A stretch of 64,000 bases of DNA, from positions 42,722-106,721 of the forward strand of contig CAZMYZ010000001.1 of the NCBI GenBank assembly GCA_964570795.1, given 5' to 3'. Shown piece by piece: positions 4,847 through 61,830 of the stretch (the first letter of the stretch is position 1; every line of letters begins with the position of its first letter). The translations under genes were made by a program, and so were the position numbers. The notes beneath the pieces were generated by a model that made no database searches, was not told the origin of the DNA, and saw only the letters and a program-made list of their open reading frames with translations. Origin of the DNA: an uncultured Candidatus Saccharibacteria bacterium. Its GTDB lineage: Bacteria; Patescibacteriota; Minisyncoccia; Phycocordibacterales; UBA918.

Positions 4847-5552
4847 TATTGAAACGGTCGGTGAGTCGTGGGATACCCTCGACTCCACGACACAAGAAGT
4901 GCTCACCCGCTGGATAGGGCGTACAAGTAAGGACGAACATGAACATGCAGCACTTTTAAAAGATGTGCAAGATGGACTCGGTTTTTCTCCCCTTACCGGT
5001 GAAGTGGTGGCTATTGGGCTCTATGATCTCGAGCGAAGGCAGGGTGTGGTGTATTACCAAGGAGCGGGTGAGATGGATTCTGAAGAAGGAGATTTTATAC
5101 TTAAGTCGCGCAGTGAAAAGGAGATGCTTCAAGATTTTTGGGATGGAGCACAGTCGTATGATACGTTTGTCACTTTTAATGGACGTTGTTTTGACGTACC
5201 TTTTCTCAATCTCCGTTCAGCGATTCAAGGAATTTGTCCAACACAGGATTTAATGGACGGGCGGTATCTCTATCAACAAAAACAAACGCGGCACGTCGAC
5301 CTACAAGACCAAATGACTTTTTATGGTGCGATGCAGCGGCGACCCTCACTTCATCTTTTTTGCCGAGCATTTGGCATAGAGAGTCCAAAGGCGGAGGGAG
5401 TGGCAGGGGATGATGTCGCAGAACTTTTTCGTATGAAAAAGTTCTGCGACATCGCCCGCTACAACGCCCGCGACGTCATCGCCACCACTGCACTCTACAA
5501 AAAGTGGCTTGAATATCTCGCACCTCATAGTTTTCGTAACACTCTTGAGTAG
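4827..5552 (+). CDS. RNase H-like 3'-5' exonuclease related to the PolB exonuclease domain (DNA_pol_B_exo2-like)
   Basis: 241 aa with N-terminal LIFDIETVG acidic motif and downstream FLNL/YNARD motifs typical of DnaQ/PolB-exo-like predicted exonucleases. Confidence 0.55.
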   Translation: MATLIFDIETVGESWDTLDSTTQEVLTRWIGRTSKDEHEHAALLKDVQDGLGFSPLTGEVVAIGLYDLERRQGVVYYQGAGEMDSEEGDFILKSRSEKEMLQDFWDGAQSYDTFVTFNGRCFDVPFLNLRSAIQGICPTQDLMDGRYLYQQKQTRHVDLQDQMTFYGAMQRRPSLHLFCRAFGIESPKAEGVAGDDVAELFRMKKFCDIARYNARDVIATTALYKKWLEYLAPHSFRNTLE

Positions 5553-7379: not shown

Positions 7380-8315
7380 ATGAATTGGATTTTTCTTGCA
7401 GTAGGTGCGCAATTCCTCAATGCGTTTGTCGCGCTTGTTGACAAGCATATTGTGAGCGACGAGAAAACACTCCCACGCCCTTTTGTGTATGCATTTTACA
7501 CCTGCCTTATTTCGGGGGTGTGGATTGTGGTGTACTTCATAGGATTCCTTCCGTTTGTTTCTGATTCGCTCCATATCCCTTCGTTCTCAAATGTGATAAA
7601 GCCGACTCTCGAAGTGGTGGCGCTTTCGTTTCTTTCTGCATACACCTTCTTCACGGCGCTTGTGGCGATGTTTAGTGCTCTTCGCGACCATGATGCGTCA
7701 GATGTGGTGCCGGTGATTGGCTCCGTCTCGGCACTCGCGTCATTTGGTATGGGGTATTATTTTTTCAATACCACACTCAGTCATAATTTTATCCTCGGTA
7801 TCATTCTTCTCTCTATCGGTACTTTTTTGGTGTCACGTCTACGCTTTCCTTTCAAAACCGCAATGGTGGCACTCTACTCAGGTATCTTTTTCGCTCTACA
7901 CTACATCACCATTAAAGGGCTTTTTGAAACAACATCATTTGATAATGGGTTCTTTTGGTCGCGCATAGCATTTGTATTCTTTGCGGGGACACTTCTTATG
8001 ATCCCAAATTACTTTGAGCGTATTAAAGAACAAACAAAAACAACAACAAAAGGCACTGCAGTACTGGTGATTGTAAACAAACTACTTGCTGGTGTTTCCA
8101 CGATTCTTATTTTGAAAGCGACGGACCTCGGCGACGTGGCGGTGGTACAAGCACTCGGTGGACTTCAGTTTGTGTTCATTCTGCTTCTCGGTATTTTCTT
8201 TAGTATTCGCCCAACAAAGCTCAATATTGGTGAGACATACAATCACGACACAATCCTCAAGAAAGTGCTTTTTGTGGCTGTTATTACCATCGGTTTTCTA
8301 GTACTATTTAGGTAA
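7380..8315 (+). CDS. DMT-superfamily (EamA-like) membrane transporter
   Basis: 311 aa polytopic protein with about 10 TM helices in two repeated halves. Confidence 0.55.
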   Translation: MNWIFLAVGAQFLNAFVALVDKHIVSDEKTLPRPFVYAFYTCLISGVWIVVYFIGFLPFVSDSLHIPSFSNVIKPTLEVVALSFLSAYTFFTALVAMFSALRDHDASDVVPVIGSVSALASFGMGYYFFNTTLSHNFILGIILLSIGTFLVSRLRFPFKTAMVALYSGIFFALHYITIKGLFETTSFDNGFFWSRIAFVFFAGTLLMIPNYFERIKEQTKTTTKGTAVLVIVNKLLAGVSTILILKATDLGDVAVVQALGGLQFVFILLLGIFFSIRPTKLNIGETYNHDTILKKVLFVAVITIGFLVLFR

Positions 8316-35777: not shown

Positions 35778-35922
35778 TGGAGGCGGAGGGATTCGAACAT
35801 TACATGTTCAGTACCCGTTCAGGATAGTTTTGTTCGCCTTAAGGCTCCAAAACTATCTCTGAATGGCTTCGAATCCTGAACAGTCTCCCAGACTGTTCAT
35901 CTCCGCTTTCGCGGTGCTCAAG
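35778..35922 (-). mobile_element. ~145-bp tRNA-3'-end-associated insertion: 20-bp imperfect tRNA-Ser 3' copy plus 124-bp element with GAACATTACATGTTC palindrome
   Basis: 35778-35798 TGGAGGCGGAGGGATTCGAAC is an 80% copy of the tRNA-Ser 3' end at 35923-35943; the intervening 124 bp starts ATTACATGTTCAGTACCCGTTCAGG and resembles the element at 54358-54484; the minus-strand RNA would fold tRNA-like but is not a canonical tRNA. Confidence 0.45.
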
Positions 35923-36007
35923 CGGAGGCGAGAGGATTTGAACCTCCGAGGGCTTGCACCCTACTCGCTTTCCAAGCGAGCGCACTAGACCACTATGCGA
36001 CGCCTCC
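35923..36007 (-). tRNA. tRNA-Ser (anticodon GGA)
   Basis: 85-nt cloverleaf: acceptor GGAGGCG/CGCCTCC, anticodon arm CTCGC-TTGGAAA-GCGAG, long variable arm, T arm GGAGG-TTCAAAT-CCTCT; CCA not encoded. Confidence 0.85.
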
Positions 36008-36303
36008 GTATGTTATTTGATTATATCTCCTATGAGTGCAAACCTTCTAGTTTTCGTCCTATCATTCTTTGAATGCCTAACAGACGCTGTACACCTTATG
36101 AAGCGCACTATCGTCCTACAGACGCTGTTCATGTTGTATGATAGTTTCTTCCGTTGGTCGAAACTACCAACAACCTCTTGAGGAAGTCTCCCAGACTTCC
36201 TCACACTATGCGACGCCTCCGTGTAAGGTCCTATCTTACAAGATTTTTTTGTATCTATCTAGCATTTGTGGGAAAAATAGAAAGGCGGTATCGTAGTAGT
36301 ACT

Positions 36304-45691: not shown

Positions 45692-45727
45692 GTATTGCAC
45701 TATAAACCCAACGCACAAAACTAAAAG

Positions 45728-45758
45728 GAAAACCATCCCGACGGATGGTTTTCTTTAT
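45728..45758 (+). terminator. rho-independent terminator
   Basis: GAAAACCATCC-CGAC-GGATGGTTTTC-TTT. Confidence 0.65.
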
Positions 45759-45794
45759 GTTTTGTGCCCTAGGCAGGAATCGGACCCACATTGA

Positions 45795-46509: not shown

Positions 46510-46582
46510 GCTGAGGTAGCTCAGTTGGTAGAGCATTTGTCTGAAGAACAAAGGGTCGGCGGTTCGAGCCCGCCCCTCAGCA
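46510..46582 (+). tRNA. tRNA-Phe (anticodon GAA)
   Basis: Acceptor GCTGAGG/CCTCAGC, D arm TAGCTCAGTTGGTAGAGCA, anticodon loop CTGAAGA, T arm GGCGG-TTCGAGC-CCGCC. Confidence 0.9.
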
Positions 46583-46640
46583 CACTGTACACAGAAAGCC
46601 CCGAAAGGGGTCTTTTCTGTGTACAGTGTGCTGAGGGAGC
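46575..46640 (+). terminator. long nested hairpin embedding the tRNA-Phe 3' acceptor end
   Basis: CCTCAGCACACTGTACACAGAAA-GCCCC-GAAA-GGGGT-C-TTTCTGTGTACAGTGTGCTGAGG, a 23-bp outer stem whose 5' arm starts inside the tRNA acceptor 3' strand. Confidence 0.5.
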
Positions 46641-47088
46641 ACGATACATAGGCATCGTGCGTGCGGGCTGAAATAGTTTGGGAAACTATTTCAGGAGGTT
46701 GTCGATATTTTGACGTAAGGAAAAATATCATACAACCTGAACTGAAGCAGTAGGCTTCGAAAGGCGGAATGATGTTGCTTTGCAACGAATGAGCCAGGGC
46801 AGGAGGCACTTAGTATTTTGTGAGGTAACGAAACAAAATACTTAGTGACCTGCGCCGAGCCTGCCACTCACTACCACGCTTCTACCAAATTCTATTTAGC
46901 AACTTGATGCCAGTATACAGAAACACCACCCAATAAAGGGTGGTGTTTCTTGTTCCCATAGGGCTGACCTATGTAATCAGAGTGTCAGCGAATTGCTGGC
47001 GGACGCCGTGCCCTCCTCTCATTCGTCAGCGAACAGATTGTAAGTCATCAAAAAAATAGGCTCCAAAGCGGAGCCTATCATAGAGCGT

Positions 47089-49477: not shown

Positions 49478-49625
49478 AGGGCTCAGAAAATATAGTTCTT
49501 ACAGAACCTGTCCAATCATTGGGTCTTTTGTCTCATTTCACCTGCCTGCCGGCAGGTTCACAAAAGCCCTCAATGAGTCTTGCGAAGTGATATTAAATCA
49601 CTTCTCACACTAACGCTCTTTATTT
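49478..49625 (-). repeat. ~130-bp structured repeat, copy A (inverted relative to copy B at 61698-61830)
   Basis: The reverse complement aligns with 61698-61830 (GAGCGT(T/C)AG(T/C)GTGAGAAGTGA...TCACTTCGCAAGACTCATTGAGG...CAAAAGACCCAATGA...TGGACAG); the core hairpin shows compensatory changes (GAAGTGAT/ATCACTTC vs GAAGTGAC/GTCACTTC); copy A also carries a CCTGCCGGCAGG palindromic insertion and an adjacent 17-bp-stem hairpin at 49443-49480. Confidence 0.55.
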
Positions 49626-52469: not shown

Positions 52470-53645
52470 TCAAGTTGAGGCAGTTTCAAGCGAAAGATTT
52501 CCGTCTGCTTTGAGGTCGGCGAGGGCGCTGTAGGTGCGCGCATTCGCCACTTGTGTATGTCCTGCAAGGGCAATCATGACACTGTTGTCGGTGGAGAGAT
52601 TTTGGGGAGGGAAGTAGAGCGTGAGGTCGGGGTATTCATTTTTAAAAAATGTAGTGAAGGTTTCGCGGATGTACGTGTTTGCAGATACACCGCCACCGAC
52701 GATGAGTGTATTGATATTATGCGCATCAATTGCTCGTCGCGCTTTCTTTAGGAGTACTTCAGTGACCGCATCTTCAAAGTCACGCGCTATAGCATCGATA
52801 TCATCAGTACCTAATTCTTTTCCTTCAATAGCATAGCGTACGGCTGTTTTGAGTCCTGAGAATGAGAAATCAAGATTGTCCGTATCTATCATCGGGCGCG
52901 GAAGTAGTGCGAACTCAGGGAGATTGTCCGTGCGCGCTCTGCGCGCACGGACACCAATCTCCGGCCCACCGGGATACTGGAGTCCCAGCATACGTGCAAC
53001 TTTATCAAATGCCTCGCCTACCGCATCATCACGCGTCTCACCAACTTTTTTGAATGAAAGCCATTCTTCCATGAGGACGAGTTCGGTGTGTCCACCCGAG
53101 ATAAGGAGTGCGAGTGCAGGGAAGGAAAGAGCAGGGATGCTATTCGTAGTGAAAATAGATGAGAGTACATGCCCCTCCATATGATTGATAGGTACGACGG
53201 GCACCTGCCACGCGTAGGAAAGTGCACGTGCAAAATTGATACCCACCCAGAGTGCAGGCTCAAGGCCGGGGCCACTCGTGACTGCGATAAGGTCTATTTT
53301 GGGGAGTGCGTATGACTGGAGGAACTCGATAAATGTGTCTCCAAGCCCTGGTTCACGGTAGAGAATGGTTTGGAGGGTCTCAGATTCCTCTGGGGTGAGA
53401 GTATGTGCTCGTGCTTCGAGAAGTCCTGCTTCCTCGAGTGCACGTACGAGCATCGGTACGAGCGTTTTCGCATGCTCACGCTTCGCAAGTGCAGGGAAGA
53501 CACCCCCGTACTCGCGATGCAAGTCTATTTGTGAAAAAAGCGCATTCCCGAGGATGCGGTACGTTGCATTAGGGAAATCACCTATTGCCTCCACGATGCT
53601 TATAGCGGTTTCATCACACGACGTTTCAATGCTGAGGATAATCAT
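52470..53645 (-). CDS. tsaD: tRNA N6-adenosine threonylcarbamoyltransferase TsaD (Kae1/Gcp family)
   Basis: MIILSIETSCDETAISIV N-terminus, HMEGHVLS metal-binding motif and the ASKHF fold; 391 aa. Confidence 0.9.
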   Translation of the reverse strand: MIILSIETSCDETAISIVEAIGDFPNATYRILGNALFSQIDLHREYGGVFPALAKREHAKTLVPMLVRALEEAGLLEARAHTLTPEESETLQTILYREPGLGDTFIEFLQSYALPKIDLIAVTSGPGLEPALWVGINFARALSYAWQVPVVPINHMEGHVLSSIFTTNSIPALSFPALALLISGGHTELVLMEEWLSFKKVGETRDDAVGEAFDKVARMLGLQYPGGPEIGVRARRARTDNLPEFALLPRPMIDTDNLDFSFSGLKTAVRYAIEGKELGTDDIDAIARDFEDAVTEVLLKKARRAIDAHNINTLIVGGGVSANTYIRETFTTFFKNEYPDLTLYFPPQNLSTDNSVMIALAGHTQVANARTYSALADLKADGNLSLETAST

Positions 53646-53751
53646 GATGTGTACTCTACCGCACCTCTATGGGAATTACCATAGAAAACCCCCCGACTTT
53701 TCTTTGAAAAGGTGGGGGGATTCAATGTTATTCTCTAGGAAACTATATTTT

Positions 53752-54006
53752 TCAGAAGGCTTTAGGTAATATCAACAAATCAGCTATTCTATTGTAGTCG
53801 TCAATTTTTTGAAGATCTAAAAGTCTCTTCATTTCGGGTCTATACCTTGCTCTGATTTCTTCGAGAGTTTCTCTGTCTTCATCAGTTAATTCAAAATCTG
53901 GGTTAGATAATTTACTTTCAAGTTCTGTTAAAAAATTATTTTCGGATTTAATTCTTGTGAATAAATCATCTGCAATAATTTGTTCAAATTTATTTCCCAT
54001 TTCCAT
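53752..54006 (-). CDS. hypothetical small acidic protein
   Basis: 84 aa ORF in an AT-rich stretch. Confidence 0.35.
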   Translation of the reverse strand: MEMGNKFEQIIADDLFTRIKSENNFLTELESKLSNPDFELTDEDRETLEEIRARYRPEMKRLLDLQKIDDYNRIADLLILPKAF

Positions 54007-54039
54007 ATACTCTATATTCTAACATATTCACACTCATCT

Positions 54040-54337
54040 GAAATTTCTACGCTGTGGCTCGCATCAGGGTCCGGAAGCAAAGCCTTTTGCTTGGTGGTGT
54101 CAGGTTACTAATTCGCTGCTCCAATAAACTGTTCGTGGTCACGAATCGCTAACTATATTTCTTCGCTACGCTCGAAATCCAGTAAGCGTTCTCGACCCCC
54201 GCCTCGCGGTTTTTCTTTCTGAGAAGAAAGAAAAACATCGCTGTGGCTCGCACTGAGGTACGCAGGCAAAGCAGTTTGCCTGCTAAACCAAAAAACAATC
54301 ATTCCTAAGAATGATTGTTTTTTGGTTTACCTCAGTG
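54040..54337. repeat. tRNA-trailer repeat region: ~85-bp dispersed repeat plus two-hairpin module (copy 1 of 2)
   Basis: 54118-54210 (GTGGTCACGAATCGCTAAC...TTCTCGACCCCCGCCTCGCGG) is homologous to 60845-60925; 54251-54337 is CACTGAGGTA-[GCAGGCAAA-GCAG-TTTGCCTGC]-[TAAACCAAAAAACAATCATTC-CTAAGA-GAATGATTGTTTTTTGGTTTA]-TACCTCAGTG; CGCTGTGGCTCGCA occurs twice. Confidence 0.5.
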
Positions 54338-54485
54338 CGCGATACAGGACTTGAACATTACATGTTCCGTTCAGGTTGTATGACGATTTCTTCCGTTGGT
54401 CGAAATCGTCGACAACCTCTTCAAGTCCAGGGCGACTGTTTACTAAAAAAAGCCAGACACAAGGCCTGACTATTTTTAGTAAAAG
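54335..54485 (-). mobile_element. ~150-bp insertion at the tRNA-Val 3' end: 23-bp perfect direct repeat of the tRNA 3' end flanking a 127-bp element
   Basis: GTGCGCGATACAGGACTTGAAC occurs at 54335-54357 and again as the real tRNA-Val 3' end at 54485-54507; the intervening 127 bp starts ATTACATGTTCCGTTCAGG, resembles the tRNA-Ser(GGA) element and holds a long bulged hairpin (GACGATTTC...GAAATCGTC). Confidence 0.5.
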
Positions 54486-54558
54486 TGCGCGATACAGGAC
54501 TTGAACCTGTGACCCCCACAATGTCAATGTGATGCTCTACCAACTGAGCTAACCGCGC
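54486..54558 (-). tRNA. tRNA-Val (anticodon GAC)
   Basis: Acceptor GCGCGGT/ATCGCGC, D arm TAGCTCAGTTGGTAGAGCA, anticodon arm TCACA-TTGACAT-TGTGG, T arm ACAGG-TTCAAGT-CCTGT; no CCA encoded. Confidence 0.85.
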
Positions 54559-54668
54559 AAGTGAATACCAAATATAGCAGAGTATGTAATTTTACGAAAG
54601 TCGATAGTATGTCGTGTGGTGAAAATTCTTGAGAGAATATTTTTTAACGATACTATATAATAAAATGT

Positions 54669-60834: not shown

Positions 60835-61172
60835 ATTTGTGGTCACGAGTTACTAACAATAATGAGTCGCTCCGCTCTCATTCTGGTAAGTACTCTCGAC
60901 CCCGCCTCGACTGTTGCAAAACAACATGTCTTCGTCTGTCATGATGGCATGCAAGCAAAGCAGGATGCTCTGTGGTCACAAGTTGCTAAGTAGAACTTGT
61001 ACTTTGTACAAATTCATACTAAGCACTTTTCGACCTCGGCTCGCGGTTCGTCGCCCTGTGAAGGGGCGACTCACAACGCTCCGCCCTCACAGCAGACCCG
61101 CAAGCAAAATTGTTTGCTTGCTAATACAAAAAACACCATGTTGTAACATGGTGTTTTTTGTATTGTCTGCTG
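60835..61172. repeat. tRNA-trailer repeat region (copy 2): tandem degenerate ~85-bp repeats plus two-hairpin terminator module abutting tRNA-Glu
   Basis: 60845-60925 (GTGGTCACGAGTTACTAAC...CTCTCGACCCCGCCTCGAC), a second partial copy 60965-61070 (GTGGTCACAAGTTGCTAAG...CGACCTCGGCTCGCGGTT); 61095-61172 is CACAGCAGAC-[GCAAGCAAA-ATT-GTTTGCTTGC]-[ACAAAAAACACCATGTT-GTAA-CATGGTGTTTTTTGT]-GTCTGCTGTG. Confidence 0.5.
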
Positions 61173-61244
61173 TGACCCCACGGAGAATCGAACTCCGATT
61201 TCCAGGATGAAAACCTGATGTCCTAACCGTTAGACGATGGGGCC
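61173..61244 (-). tRNA. tRNA-Glu (anticodon UUC)
   Basis: Acceptor GGCCCCA/TGGGGTC, D arm TCGTCTAACGGTTAGGACA, anticodon arm TCAGG-TTTTCAT-CCTGG, T arm CGGAG-TTCGATT-CTCCG; no CCA. Confidence 0.85.
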
Positions 61245-61462
61245 GGACGAAATTCTTTAATTTTGTCCGGCCCCATCGTCGATGACGAGGGGTGAGAAAG
61301 TCTGGGAGACTTTCGCAAGACCTTGCCTGATATTTTTTGAGGCAAAAAGCCGAAGAAAAATATCGACAAGGTGTACAGTCCCTGTAAGGGACAATATACT
61401 CCGAACCTCGCTATACTACCGAAAAATCAAAAAAAATGCTAGTTTTATAATTCATACACTCT

Positions 61463-61549
61463 GGAAGAGTGGCTGAGAGGTTGAAGGCACATGTCTCGAA
61501 AACATGCATGGGGGAAACCCCATCGGGGGTTCAAATCCCCCCTCTTCCG
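61463..61549 (+). tRNA. tRNA-Ser (anticodon CGA)
   Basis: Acceptor GGAAGAG/CTCTTCC, anticodon arm CATGT-CTCGAAA-ACATG, long variable arm, T arm GGGGG-TTCAAAT-CCCCC. Confidence 0.85.
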
Positions 61550-61556
61550 CTCGTAG

Positions 61557-61586
61557 AAAATACCGCCATTACGGCGGTTATTTTCT
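61557..61586 (+). terminator. rho-independent terminator after tRNA-Ser
   Basis: AAAATACCGCC-ATTAC-GGCGGTTATTTTC. Confidence 0.6.
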
Positions 61587-61697
61587 TGAGCGGAAGAGGA
61601 ACAAAGCACCTGCGTGCTTTGTGTGGGGATTTGAAAATGCAAAGTATATTTTCTGCTTTCATAATGCAGAAAATACTTTGCATCGGGCAGGTAATTC

Positions 61698-61830
61698 TTA
61701 TGAGCGTCAGCGTGAGAAGTGACTTGATGTCACTTCGCAAGACTCATTGAGGACTTTTGTGAATGAAATGAAACAAAAGACCCAATGAGTGGACAGTTCC
61801 TGTAAGGAATTAGAATTGGACGCCGAATCC
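61698..61830 (+). repeat. ~130-bp structured repeat, copy B
   Basis: See copy A (49478-49625); contains hairpin GAAGTGAC-TTGAT-GTCACTTC and the conserved CAAAAGACCCAATGAGTGGACAG block; also a palindrome GCAAAGTATATTTTCTGC...GCAGAAAATACTTTGC just upstream (61637-61680). Confidence 0.55.

Follow-up and report, generated by a model that had tools for sequence, protein, structure and literature searches.

A covarying multi-helix module behind tRNA genes and ftsZ of Patescibacteria that bears footprints of insertion

Integron cassettes lack a promoter; they stack in one direction at a fixed docking point and are expressed by read-through from upstream. The T-loop, as Williams is said to have noted in 2002, is a known crossover sublocation for integration into tRNA genes. 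An island that enters such a gene splits its target within the 3' part; the insert restores the gene and the displaced 3' fragment marks the far end of the island (PMC4383910). How does a repeat that recurs behind bacterial tRNA genes compare with these systems? We examined 64,000 nucleotides (nt) of the contig CAZMYZ010000001.1 (positions 42,722 to 106,721; hereafter the window), a bacterial chromosome segment of about 45% GC whose genes include RNase P class A RNA, TsaD, a class I aminoacyl-tRNA synthetase and six tRNA genes. The repeat that follows its tRNA-Val and tRNA-Glu genes is one copy of a folded module of about 215 bases, read on the tRNA strand. The module is a conserved, strand-specific, five-helix element attached to the 3' ends of ftsZ and of certain tRNA genes, where its footprints are those of an insertion that replaced the 3' end of the target.

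An initial annotation of the window had described two hairpins, A and B, within an outer inverted repeat behind both tRNAs, followed by a repeat of some 85 bp. The hairpins and the inverted repeat are present and were recovered by a repeat scan. The 85-bp repeat is likewise real: the pattern GTGGTCACRA-N(3-8)-CTAA has three matches in the window compared with 0.02 expected, and its coordinates can be refined, on the + strand, to 54135-54210, 60839-60912 and 60972-61046. The same imperfect rod-like fold is predicted for all three copies. The tRNA-sense strand folds better (z of -3.7, -2.5 and -5.1 for the three copies) than does the other strand (-2.4, -2.0 and -3.1). A fourth, diverged copy of this rod (rod1) lies behind tRNA-Phe (46510-46583) and was recognized by a covariance model (CM) at 44.7 bits (table 1). 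The window copies are only 66-75% identical to one another, and the sequences of their hairpin B and of the trailer segment X, defined below, are unrelated. That the same architecture trails both tRNAs, as had been proposed, is true of tRNA-Glu; at tRNA-Val the module adjoins a displaced 23-nt copy of the tRNA end and not the real 3' end at 54485.

How widely is the rod distributed? The three window copies supplied a pattern of 23 fixed bases, which was run against GTDB at one genome per species. Chance was estimated to yield about 2 matches in 596 Gb; at least 118 stretches matched. Among the matches listed, every taxonomically labelled locus is a Patescibacteria metagenome-assembled genome (Kaiserbacteria, Nomurabacteria, Paceibacterota, Campbellbacteria, Yonathbacteria, Lloydbacteria, Elulimicrobium and others), a few being labelled only as generic ‘bacterium’. 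There were no matches in viral contigs. Within the window, Rfam 15 at the gathering threshold matches only tRNA and RNase P, with none over the module, and even at E<=10 nothing covers the rods or the domain that precedes them. Neither is there anything consistent over the rods of 8 further loci at E<=1, or a family match in 11 orphan loci. Keyword searches of the literature found no description of the element. The module is undescribed in Rfam 15 and in the searchable literature.

The consensus fold was derived from 47 long-form modules, both window copies included. It comprises five helical elements: P1, hairpin B, hairpin A, dom2 and the rod. In P1, tRNA positions 70-74 (nnCAC) and 6-8 trailer bases (X) pair with a downstream X'-GUGnn. 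P1 encloses hairpin B, which consists of an A-tract, a GC-richer tip and a U-tract; the long form adds hairpin A. Two or three bases after P1 begins dom2, two 3-bp helices (P2 and P3) with conserved GSA/GA loops and a variable hairpin, hpC, between them. Two bases further on begins the rod, GGUCGAGARYACUUAG...CUUAGURAYUCGUGACC, 62-66 nt in length, with fixed mismatches (A.G and U.U), a bulged A, an invariant base and a more variable tip.

Is this fold under selection? Over its 65 pairs, 94.0% of the cells are paired, compared with 69.0% in shuffled and 36-41% in slid controls; the covariation score is 0.643, compared with 0.177 and 0.07-0.11, respectively. Changes on both sides occur at 52 of the 65 pairs, and none of 500 shuffles reaches any of the observed measures, which bears out the earlier suggestion of selection on structure. 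The short form, which lacks hairpin A, has the remaining domains in common with the long form, and 27 of its 39 pairs are compensated. In an alignment of the rod alone (124 sequences) the pair 27:81 is UA in 64 and CG in 59, and the pair 26:83 is GC in 88 and AU in 33, neither being forced by the search pattern. The eight-base motif YGAGSCGG just 5' of the rod is conserved though it lies outside that pattern. Two P1 pairs within the acceptor strand track the identity of the tRNA (AU 14, UA 13, CG 9, GC 6). Wobble pairs of the GU/UG type number 76 compared with 31 of the AC/CA type, and the G.U at the base of the rod is invariant; we therefore assign the fold to the tRNA-sense strand. No conserved reading frame runs through the module. 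A small open reading frame (ORF) or leader peptide starting at the conserved ATG of dom2 was considered and rejected, since the frame of this ATG relative to the rod is random (34/31/29) and the peptides are unrelated.

What role might be played by hairpin B? Its four basal pairs are A-U in 39-40 of the 47 sequences and U-A in no more than 4. Such a polarity, with A on the 5' strand and U on the 3' strand, marks terminators built of an A-tract and a U-tract, and for this reason hairpin B, together with P1, is likely to be the terminator of the tRNA transcript. A simple terminator scan does not flag hairpin B in the window, because the T-run lies inside the extended stem. The description ‘terminator/processing module’ given in the initial annotation is plausible for hairpin B and P1. 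All of the tRNA genes of the window lack an encoded CCA and end in N73-C-A, and all six are followed by a long hairpin whose stem takes in the last tRNA bases, whether or not a rod is present. Hairpin B and P1 are thus the generic part; dom2 and the rod are an add-on 2-3 bases after that hairpin. Other tRNA-trailing hairpins of the window lie at 45713-45767, 46574-46637, 61541-61599 and about 35900-35928. At 61233-61280 there is in addition a 22-nt inverted repeat (95%) in which the 5' end of tRNA-Glu pairs with its own leader, mirroring the closing helix at the 3' end.

To which genes are the rods linked? We counted 163 nhmmer matches in the 118 loci and the window. A tRNA on the same strand ends within 650 nt upstream of 120 of them, compared with a chance estimate of about 7% from the density of tRNAs. 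The remainder comprises 19 rods at the edge of a locus and 24 orphans, so that 120 of the 144 assessable rods (83%) are tRNA-linked. All copies have a single orientation relative to the upstream gene. The distances from tRNA to rod cluster at 80-102 nt (the short form) and at 120-144 nt (the long form, often exactly 136). The tRNAs that bear rods are those for Ala, Arg, Glu, Lys, Val, Tyr, Ile and Phe, and 91 of 93 rod-linked tRNAs end in CAC. Bystander tRNAs for Ser, Pro, Cys and Thr, which have other ends, bear a rod in 2 of 32 cases. The tRNAs for Leu and Gly end in CAC yet rarely bear one.

How did the module come to lie behind these genes? The tRNA-Val locus of the window is instructive (table 1). 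The last 23 nt from the T-loop to one base past the 3' end of the functional gene recur, without a mismatch, in a displaced fragment whose last 5 nt make up the 5' side of P1 in the rod1 module. Between the two copies lies a 127-nt unit of a second type, rod2. At the orthologous locus L070 (TsaD 72.7% identical; tRNA-Val 53/54 bases) the rod1 module is kept and exactly these 150 nt are missing. Since the missing segment is bounded by direct repeats, we regard the two loci as a filled and an empty site. Five copies of the rod2 family (AGGTTGTCGA-hairpin-TCATACAACCTGAAC) occur in the window, all of them beside tRNA genes; weaker relatives occur in L086, L097, L099, L022 and L040.

The defining features of an island in a tRNA gene, a target restored by the insert and a displaced 3' end in direct repeat, were found at the window tRNA-Val and elsewhere. 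Displaced target fragments occur at the window tRNA-Val (23/23) and in L038, L081, L052, L023 and others. Partly decayed 3' fragments of tRNA (at least 15 of 22 bases matching) lie within 150 nt past the last rod in 11 of 98 loci, compared with 0 of 98 upstream and 5 of 98 on the reverse strand. The displaced fragments begin directly after (GT)GACC, the sequence with which the rod ends. Among the 39 rods that do not match the search pattern, about ten adjoin T-loop fragments and seven more adjoin GGTGCC... behind ftsZ. The interval from tRNA-Val to tsaD, compared in L106 (1838-1925), L023 (470-900), L070 (1000-2060) and the window (53640-54560), ranges from 9 nt in L106 up to 300-900 nt, where modules and unrelated small ORFs occupy the space. 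In L023, past a rod1 module and a rod2 remnant, the displaced old tRNA end is still 7 nt from tsaD, and in all four loci a CAC stands 3-9 nt before the tsaD start. In the nested arrays (L038, L023 and the Val locus of the window) the newest unit lies beside the gene and the decayed units lie distal to it.

The seven rods that adjoin GGTGCC have FtsZ as their upstream ORF. The module, consisting here of dom2 and the rod, lies behind ftsZ in L030 (about 5030-5270), L033 (about 2520-2740), L007 (6772-7022), L035 (5414-5475), L060 (2633-2680) and L017 (3557-3588). Here P1 is formed between X' and the final codons of ftsZ, and three synonymous changes between L030 and L033 are compensated in X'. 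Past each of the seven rods the sequence that encodes the FtsZ C-terminus (VPAF...stop) recurs in decayed form. The ftsZ-linked copies, like the 23-nt duplication, the rod2 family and the wide taxonomic conservation, had gone unmentioned in the initial annotation.

Table 1. Features of the window that belong to, or adjoin, the rod1 and rod2 units, with positions numbered from the first base of the window.
Feature	Position	Strand	Basis or remark
tRNA-Val(GAC), functional copy, without encoded CCA	54485..54558	-	ARAGORN; Rfam tRNA 67.9 bits
23-nt direct repeat, copy 1: T-loop to 3' end of functional tRNA-Val + 1 nt	54484..54506	-	100% identity
23-nt direct repeat, copy 2: displaced tRNA-Val 3' fragment	54334..54356	-	23/23 match
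127-nt inserted unit, rod2 type, between repeat copies	54357..54483	-	missing from orthologous L070; rod2 hidden Markov model (HMM) match 54357-54435
127-nt unit: terminator-like hairpin	54439-54483		site 54451-54471(-) flagged by terminator scan
127-nt unit: rod2 hairpin	about 54370-54425		
127-nt unit: end motif GAACATGTAAT	palindrome 54353-54367		same junction motif at 35795-35809
Long-form rod1 module near tRNA-Val	54132..54349	-	consensus structure and covariation; CM match 54131-54214, 85.4 bits
tRNA-Val module: P1	54329-54339 with 54249-54259	-	47-sequence consensus fold
tRNA-Val module: hairpin B; hairpin A	54286-54327; 54262-54283	-	47-sequence consensus fold
tRNA-Val module: dom2 (variable hairpin hpC about 54211-54238); rod	54200-54247; 54137-54197	-	
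Truncated older unit	54050..54131	-	direct repeat 54050-54093 vs 54239-54282, 77%; alignment
Truncated older unit: rod 3' half; hairpin A copy; X'/dom2-5' copy	54096-54125; about 54075-54093; 54050-54073		
tRNA-Glu(TTC)	61172..61244	-	ARAGORN; Rfam tRNA match
Long-form rod1 module directly behind tRNA-Glu	60969..61183	-	covariation; CM match 60968-61051, 67.2 bits
tRNA-Glu module: P1; hairpin B; hairpin A	61166-61176 with 61087-61097; 61124-61164; 61100-61121	-	
tRNA-Glu module: dom2; rod	61038-61085; 60974-61035	-	
Second tandem unit behind tRNA-Glu	60835..60967	-	CM match 60835-60917, 88.4 bits; direct repeats
Second tandem unit: hairpin A and X' remnant, then rod	rod 60839-60901	-	
rod2 copy upstream of tRNA-Glu	61304..61394	-	rod2 HMM
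rod2, then dom2 and diverged rod1, behind tRNA-Phe	46674..46871 (rod2 46674-46755; then dom2; rod1 46782-46871)	+	model searches
rod2 copies flanking tRNA-Ser(GGA)	35800..36198 (35800-35883, 36114-36198)	-	rod2 HMM
rod2 35800-35883: tRNA-Ser-like 3' fragment beside junction GAACATGTAAT	35780-35800		

Are the units mobile today? The initial annotation had offered the arm of an integrative element as one possibility. The footprints of insertion, that is the displaced tRNA 3' fragments and the filled and empty sites, agree with one half of that suggestion. The other half does not stand: the units are gene-less, they lie in conserved housekeeping synteny, and divergence among the copies of this genome is as great as that between genomes, from which we conclude that they are not arms of a present-day island. 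At the orthologous tRNA-Val to tsaD locus of L070 the module is kept with compensated changes in hairpin B, so that it has been retained across genera. In tandem arrays the X' of the second units matches the local tRNA, which argues for local duplication. Contigs L001-L004 of Logan, from the same strain, are identical to the window; these independent assemblies break inside or next to the tRNA-Val module, in agreement with contig ends induced by repeats, and the module, inside which the contigs end, would account for the tendency of assemblies of such organisms to break beside tRNAs.

The genes around the rods also argue against present-day mobility. When 891 neighbouring ORFs were clustered, the recurrent families were housekeeping ones (Ddl, the CCA-adding enzyme family, a TrxB-like protein, RuvX, FtsZ and FtsA/PilM), and no recombinase was among them. 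A cognate integrase was sought: the units hold no ORF, and a serine recombinase was seen only in L066, where a large enzyme of this type belongs to a different element, a 5.5-kb island in tRNA-Arg(TCG). A general link to serine recombinases was rejected, as neither the window nor any of the other 117 loci has a homologue of this enzyme. The ORFs ending in ‘...VR*’ before orphan rods form no family and include no integrase.

What, then, is the element? The reading that we prefer, and to which we give an even chance, is a vertically retained, cassette-like, structured tail of tRNAs in the Patescibacteria, about 215 nt long and folded in the tRNA sense. The steps by which it might arise and act are given here in falling order of confidence. 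Hairpin B and P1 would terminate the tRNA transcript and close it off as a stem. Transcription that starts at the strong tRNA promoter and reads through would produce dom2 and the rod, which would probably be bound by a conserved protein as a sequence-specific binding or processing platform; the near-palindromic ACUUAGU/ACUUAGU with its U.U mismatch suggests a dimeric partner, for example an enzyme of the RNase III type. The ...GACC-AC-A tail at the 3' end of the rod mimics local tRNA 3' ends, and enzymes of tRNA end-processing may act there too. The gene-less cassette would have been installed by recombination, entering the 3' part of its target gene and bringing a replacement 3' end. Entry would occur at the tRNA T-loop GGTTC|GA (or CAC|A) and at the last codons of ftsZ, pushing older copies downstream, and most copies would since have been inherited vertically under structural constraint.

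Several points weigh against this preferred reading. The loci were ascertained by means of the rod, and the share of tRNAs that carry the module is accordingly not a genome-wide estimate. The invariant positions of the rod are partly imposed by the search pattern; the unbiased evidence consists of the unforced columns and the 39 non-pattern matches. Well-conserved orphan or displaced rods lie far from a functional tRNA (5.5 kb in L066, 1.8 kb in L085) and fit poorly with a role in cis in tRNA maturation. If termination at hairpin B were efficient, dom2 and the rod would rarely be transcribed. P1 competes with the acceptor helix of the tRNA, which is awkward for a simple role in processing. The excess of G.U is equally compatible with RNA and with folded single-stranded DNA. 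Lastly, clustering of the 891 neighbouring ORFs yielded no candidate for a partner protein.

Could the structure serve at the level of DNA alone? The module might be a non-autonomous integrative cassette, its hairpins being recombination structures and its rod a folded single-strand or a double-strand site for a putative recombinase; no RNA function would be needed and hairpin B would merely keep the tRNA terminated, by analogy with integron attC sites or with att-only elements mobilized in cis. We consider this possible though rather unlikely. It would account for target duplications that begin in the T-loop and adjoin the rod end GTGACC, for the same footprint at ftsZ, for truncated copies and for the nested arrays with their newest unit nearest the gene; moreover, T-loops in these genomes do receive islands (the 5.5-kb one of L066 with its serine recombinase, the 1.8-kb islet of L085). 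Like attC sites, which are conserved in structure and not in sequence, the rod folds on one strand and combines a conserved base with a variable tip and with extrahelical or mismatched bases that are fixed. Integron cassettes, stacked in one orientation and without a promoter, offer a further parallel. However, the R'/R'' consensus of attC, the RYYYAAC/GTTRRRY core, is lacking from it and its sequence is far more conserved than that of attC. With no ORFs in the cassettes, no IntI in the loci examined and docking inside a tRNA gene or ftsZ, the integron proper was rejected. Islands of tRNA and tmRNA genes come closer, for at the module sites, too, the target is restored, a 3' fragment is displaced in direct orientation, and units accrete in tandem where one tRNA is used repeatedly. 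Unlike such islands the units are of only 130-250 nt without an integrase or any other gene, one type of module serves at least eight tRNA identities as well as ftsZ, and the module is deeply conserved, with a covarying multi-helix structure and old copies within a genome. P1, hairpin A and dom2 all covary, which is far more structure than a recombination site needs. Retention at orthologous loci across genera, the low identity of the window copies with their unrelated hairpin B and X, the second-unit X' that points to local duplication, and the want of viral copies and of a recombinase that recurs near rods all argue in the same direction. A further scheme, which we think improbable, is a Paceibacteria cassette system in which the tRNA T-loop GGTTC|GA, or in some genomes the last codons of ftsZ, would be the docking site for gene-less cassettes of about 200 nt served by a putative rod-recognizing enzyme. 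Such a system might be integron-like or guide-scaffold-like, the cassette supplying the replacement 3' end of its target with the rod set against a target-matching flank.

Might the rod instead leave the tRNA altogether? In the tRNA-pre-miRNA units of MHV68 and in MALAT1-mascRNA a hairpin or tRNA-like element adjoins a tRNA-type structure, and RNase Z and RNase P could set the ends. On that pattern the rod, with or without dom2, would be cut from the tRNA precursor by these enzymes through mimicry of an acceptor/T-arm minihelix (GGUC.../...GACC) and act in trans as a free small RNA, an account that on the sequence evidence we hold to be distinctly unlikely. It is consistent with the rod end ...GACC-AC-A, which parallels the local tRNA gene ends nnC-AC-A, although this is a resemblance alone to an RNase P or RNase Z minihelix substrate. 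The rod stacks about 12-13 pairs before its first large irregularity, it keeps a fixed position on the tRNA strand, the sequence of both its arms is conserved across orders, and rods distant from tRNAs remain intact. On the other hand, the base at -1 is G and not the usual U, the ftsZ-linked rods lack the AC tail, there is no T-loop-like element, and the tRNA-like and Y-RNA models of Rfam do not match even at E<=10. The MHV68 and MALAT1 units are eukaryotic or viral, whereas here a terminator-like hairpin intervenes and the module also follows the ftsZ mRNA. Far less probable than any of these is an ordinary species-level repeat of the repetitive extragenic palindromic (REP) or bacterial interspersed mosaic element (BIME) kind, or simply an elaborate terminator. 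The module does resemble REP/BIME in being an imperfect palindrome in transcribed 3' intergenic regions, sometimes clustered in tandem, and its antisense strand starts with GTGG. Yet it spans many lineages of Patescibacteria rather than one species, it has a fixed position and a single orientation behind particular tRNAs at quantized distances, its rod belongs to a larger fold of five helices, one of which takes in the 3' end of the upstream gene, and the covariation over several domains goes beyond a terminator. The initial annotation had named a generic REP at many non-tRNA sites as the outcome that would count against it; with 120 of the 144 assessable rods tRNA-linked, that reading is essentially excluded, although no search for a RAYT gene was made.

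Other known elements were compared and set aside. A miniature inverted-repeat transposable element does not fit the 66-75% identity of the window copies, and the duplications comprise about 20 nt of the target 3' end and not 2-10 bp. TIGR-Tas arrays, of parasitic bacteria and phages, have units of about 36 nt with two 8-12-nt repeats and 9-nt spacers beside a Nop-domain gene (PMC12045711); the units of 130-215 nt do not match this, and there is no array of short units. By-eye comparison of the consensus with the k-turn, the C/D box, the hammerhead core, the a1/a2 layout of retrons and domain V of group II introns gave no fit.

The tiny genomes of these candidate phyla, with little non-coding DNA, keep a module of some 200 nt behind a subset of tRNAs and ftsZ in many lineages, and its covariation equals that of established RNA families. 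Should it act as RNA, it would be a new and widespread bacterial class tied to the formation of tRNA 3' ends. If it is a substrate of recombination, it would reveal how the tRNA genes of these organisms acquire cassettes and trade them. In both cases it offers an alignable handle for the annotation of genomes of the candidate phyla radiation (CM R1; alignments A4, A5 and A7).

Several minor observations concern the neighbourhoods of the rods. The recurrent neighbours, considered as partners, were rejected: they comprise only housekeeping families and a helix-turn-helix protein tied by synteny to tRNA-Arg(TCG) or tRNA-Gly(GCC). The latter family, of about 220 amino acids, has an N-terminal helix-turn-helix, an uncharacterized C-terminal domain and the motif GLYWAEGA, and is not found in the window. 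Its genes lie 3-45 nt upstream of, and co-oriented with, one or the other of these tRNAs in 10 loci, among them L006 (2722-3399 and 4320-4997), L011 (1480-2145), L018 (7184-7867) and L066 (6297-6974). In nine loci a gene of the CCA-adding enzyme/poly(A) polymerase family lies near the rod, at a median distance of about 270 nt (for example L018, 4829-6379); this proximity is probably synteny. The rod of L018 follows tRNA-Arg(TCG).

The 1.8-kb islet of L085 (2429-4135), with CsoR-like, membrane-protein and DUF305-like ORFs annotated by eye, has tRNA-Ala(GGC) on one side; on the other is the decayed 3' end of a tRNA-Ala, its rod1 module still intact. A third repeat family occurs in the window at 49488-49618 and 61702-61817(-), 77% identical over 132 nt; in L066 (about 690-800) it forms the right end of the 5.5-kb island. 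The window also contains a 61-nt direct repeat (235-295 and 1046-1106, 88.5% identical), and the Patescibacteria contig L118 has a match to LOOT RNA (RF03000) of 67.1 bits at 7558-7674(-).

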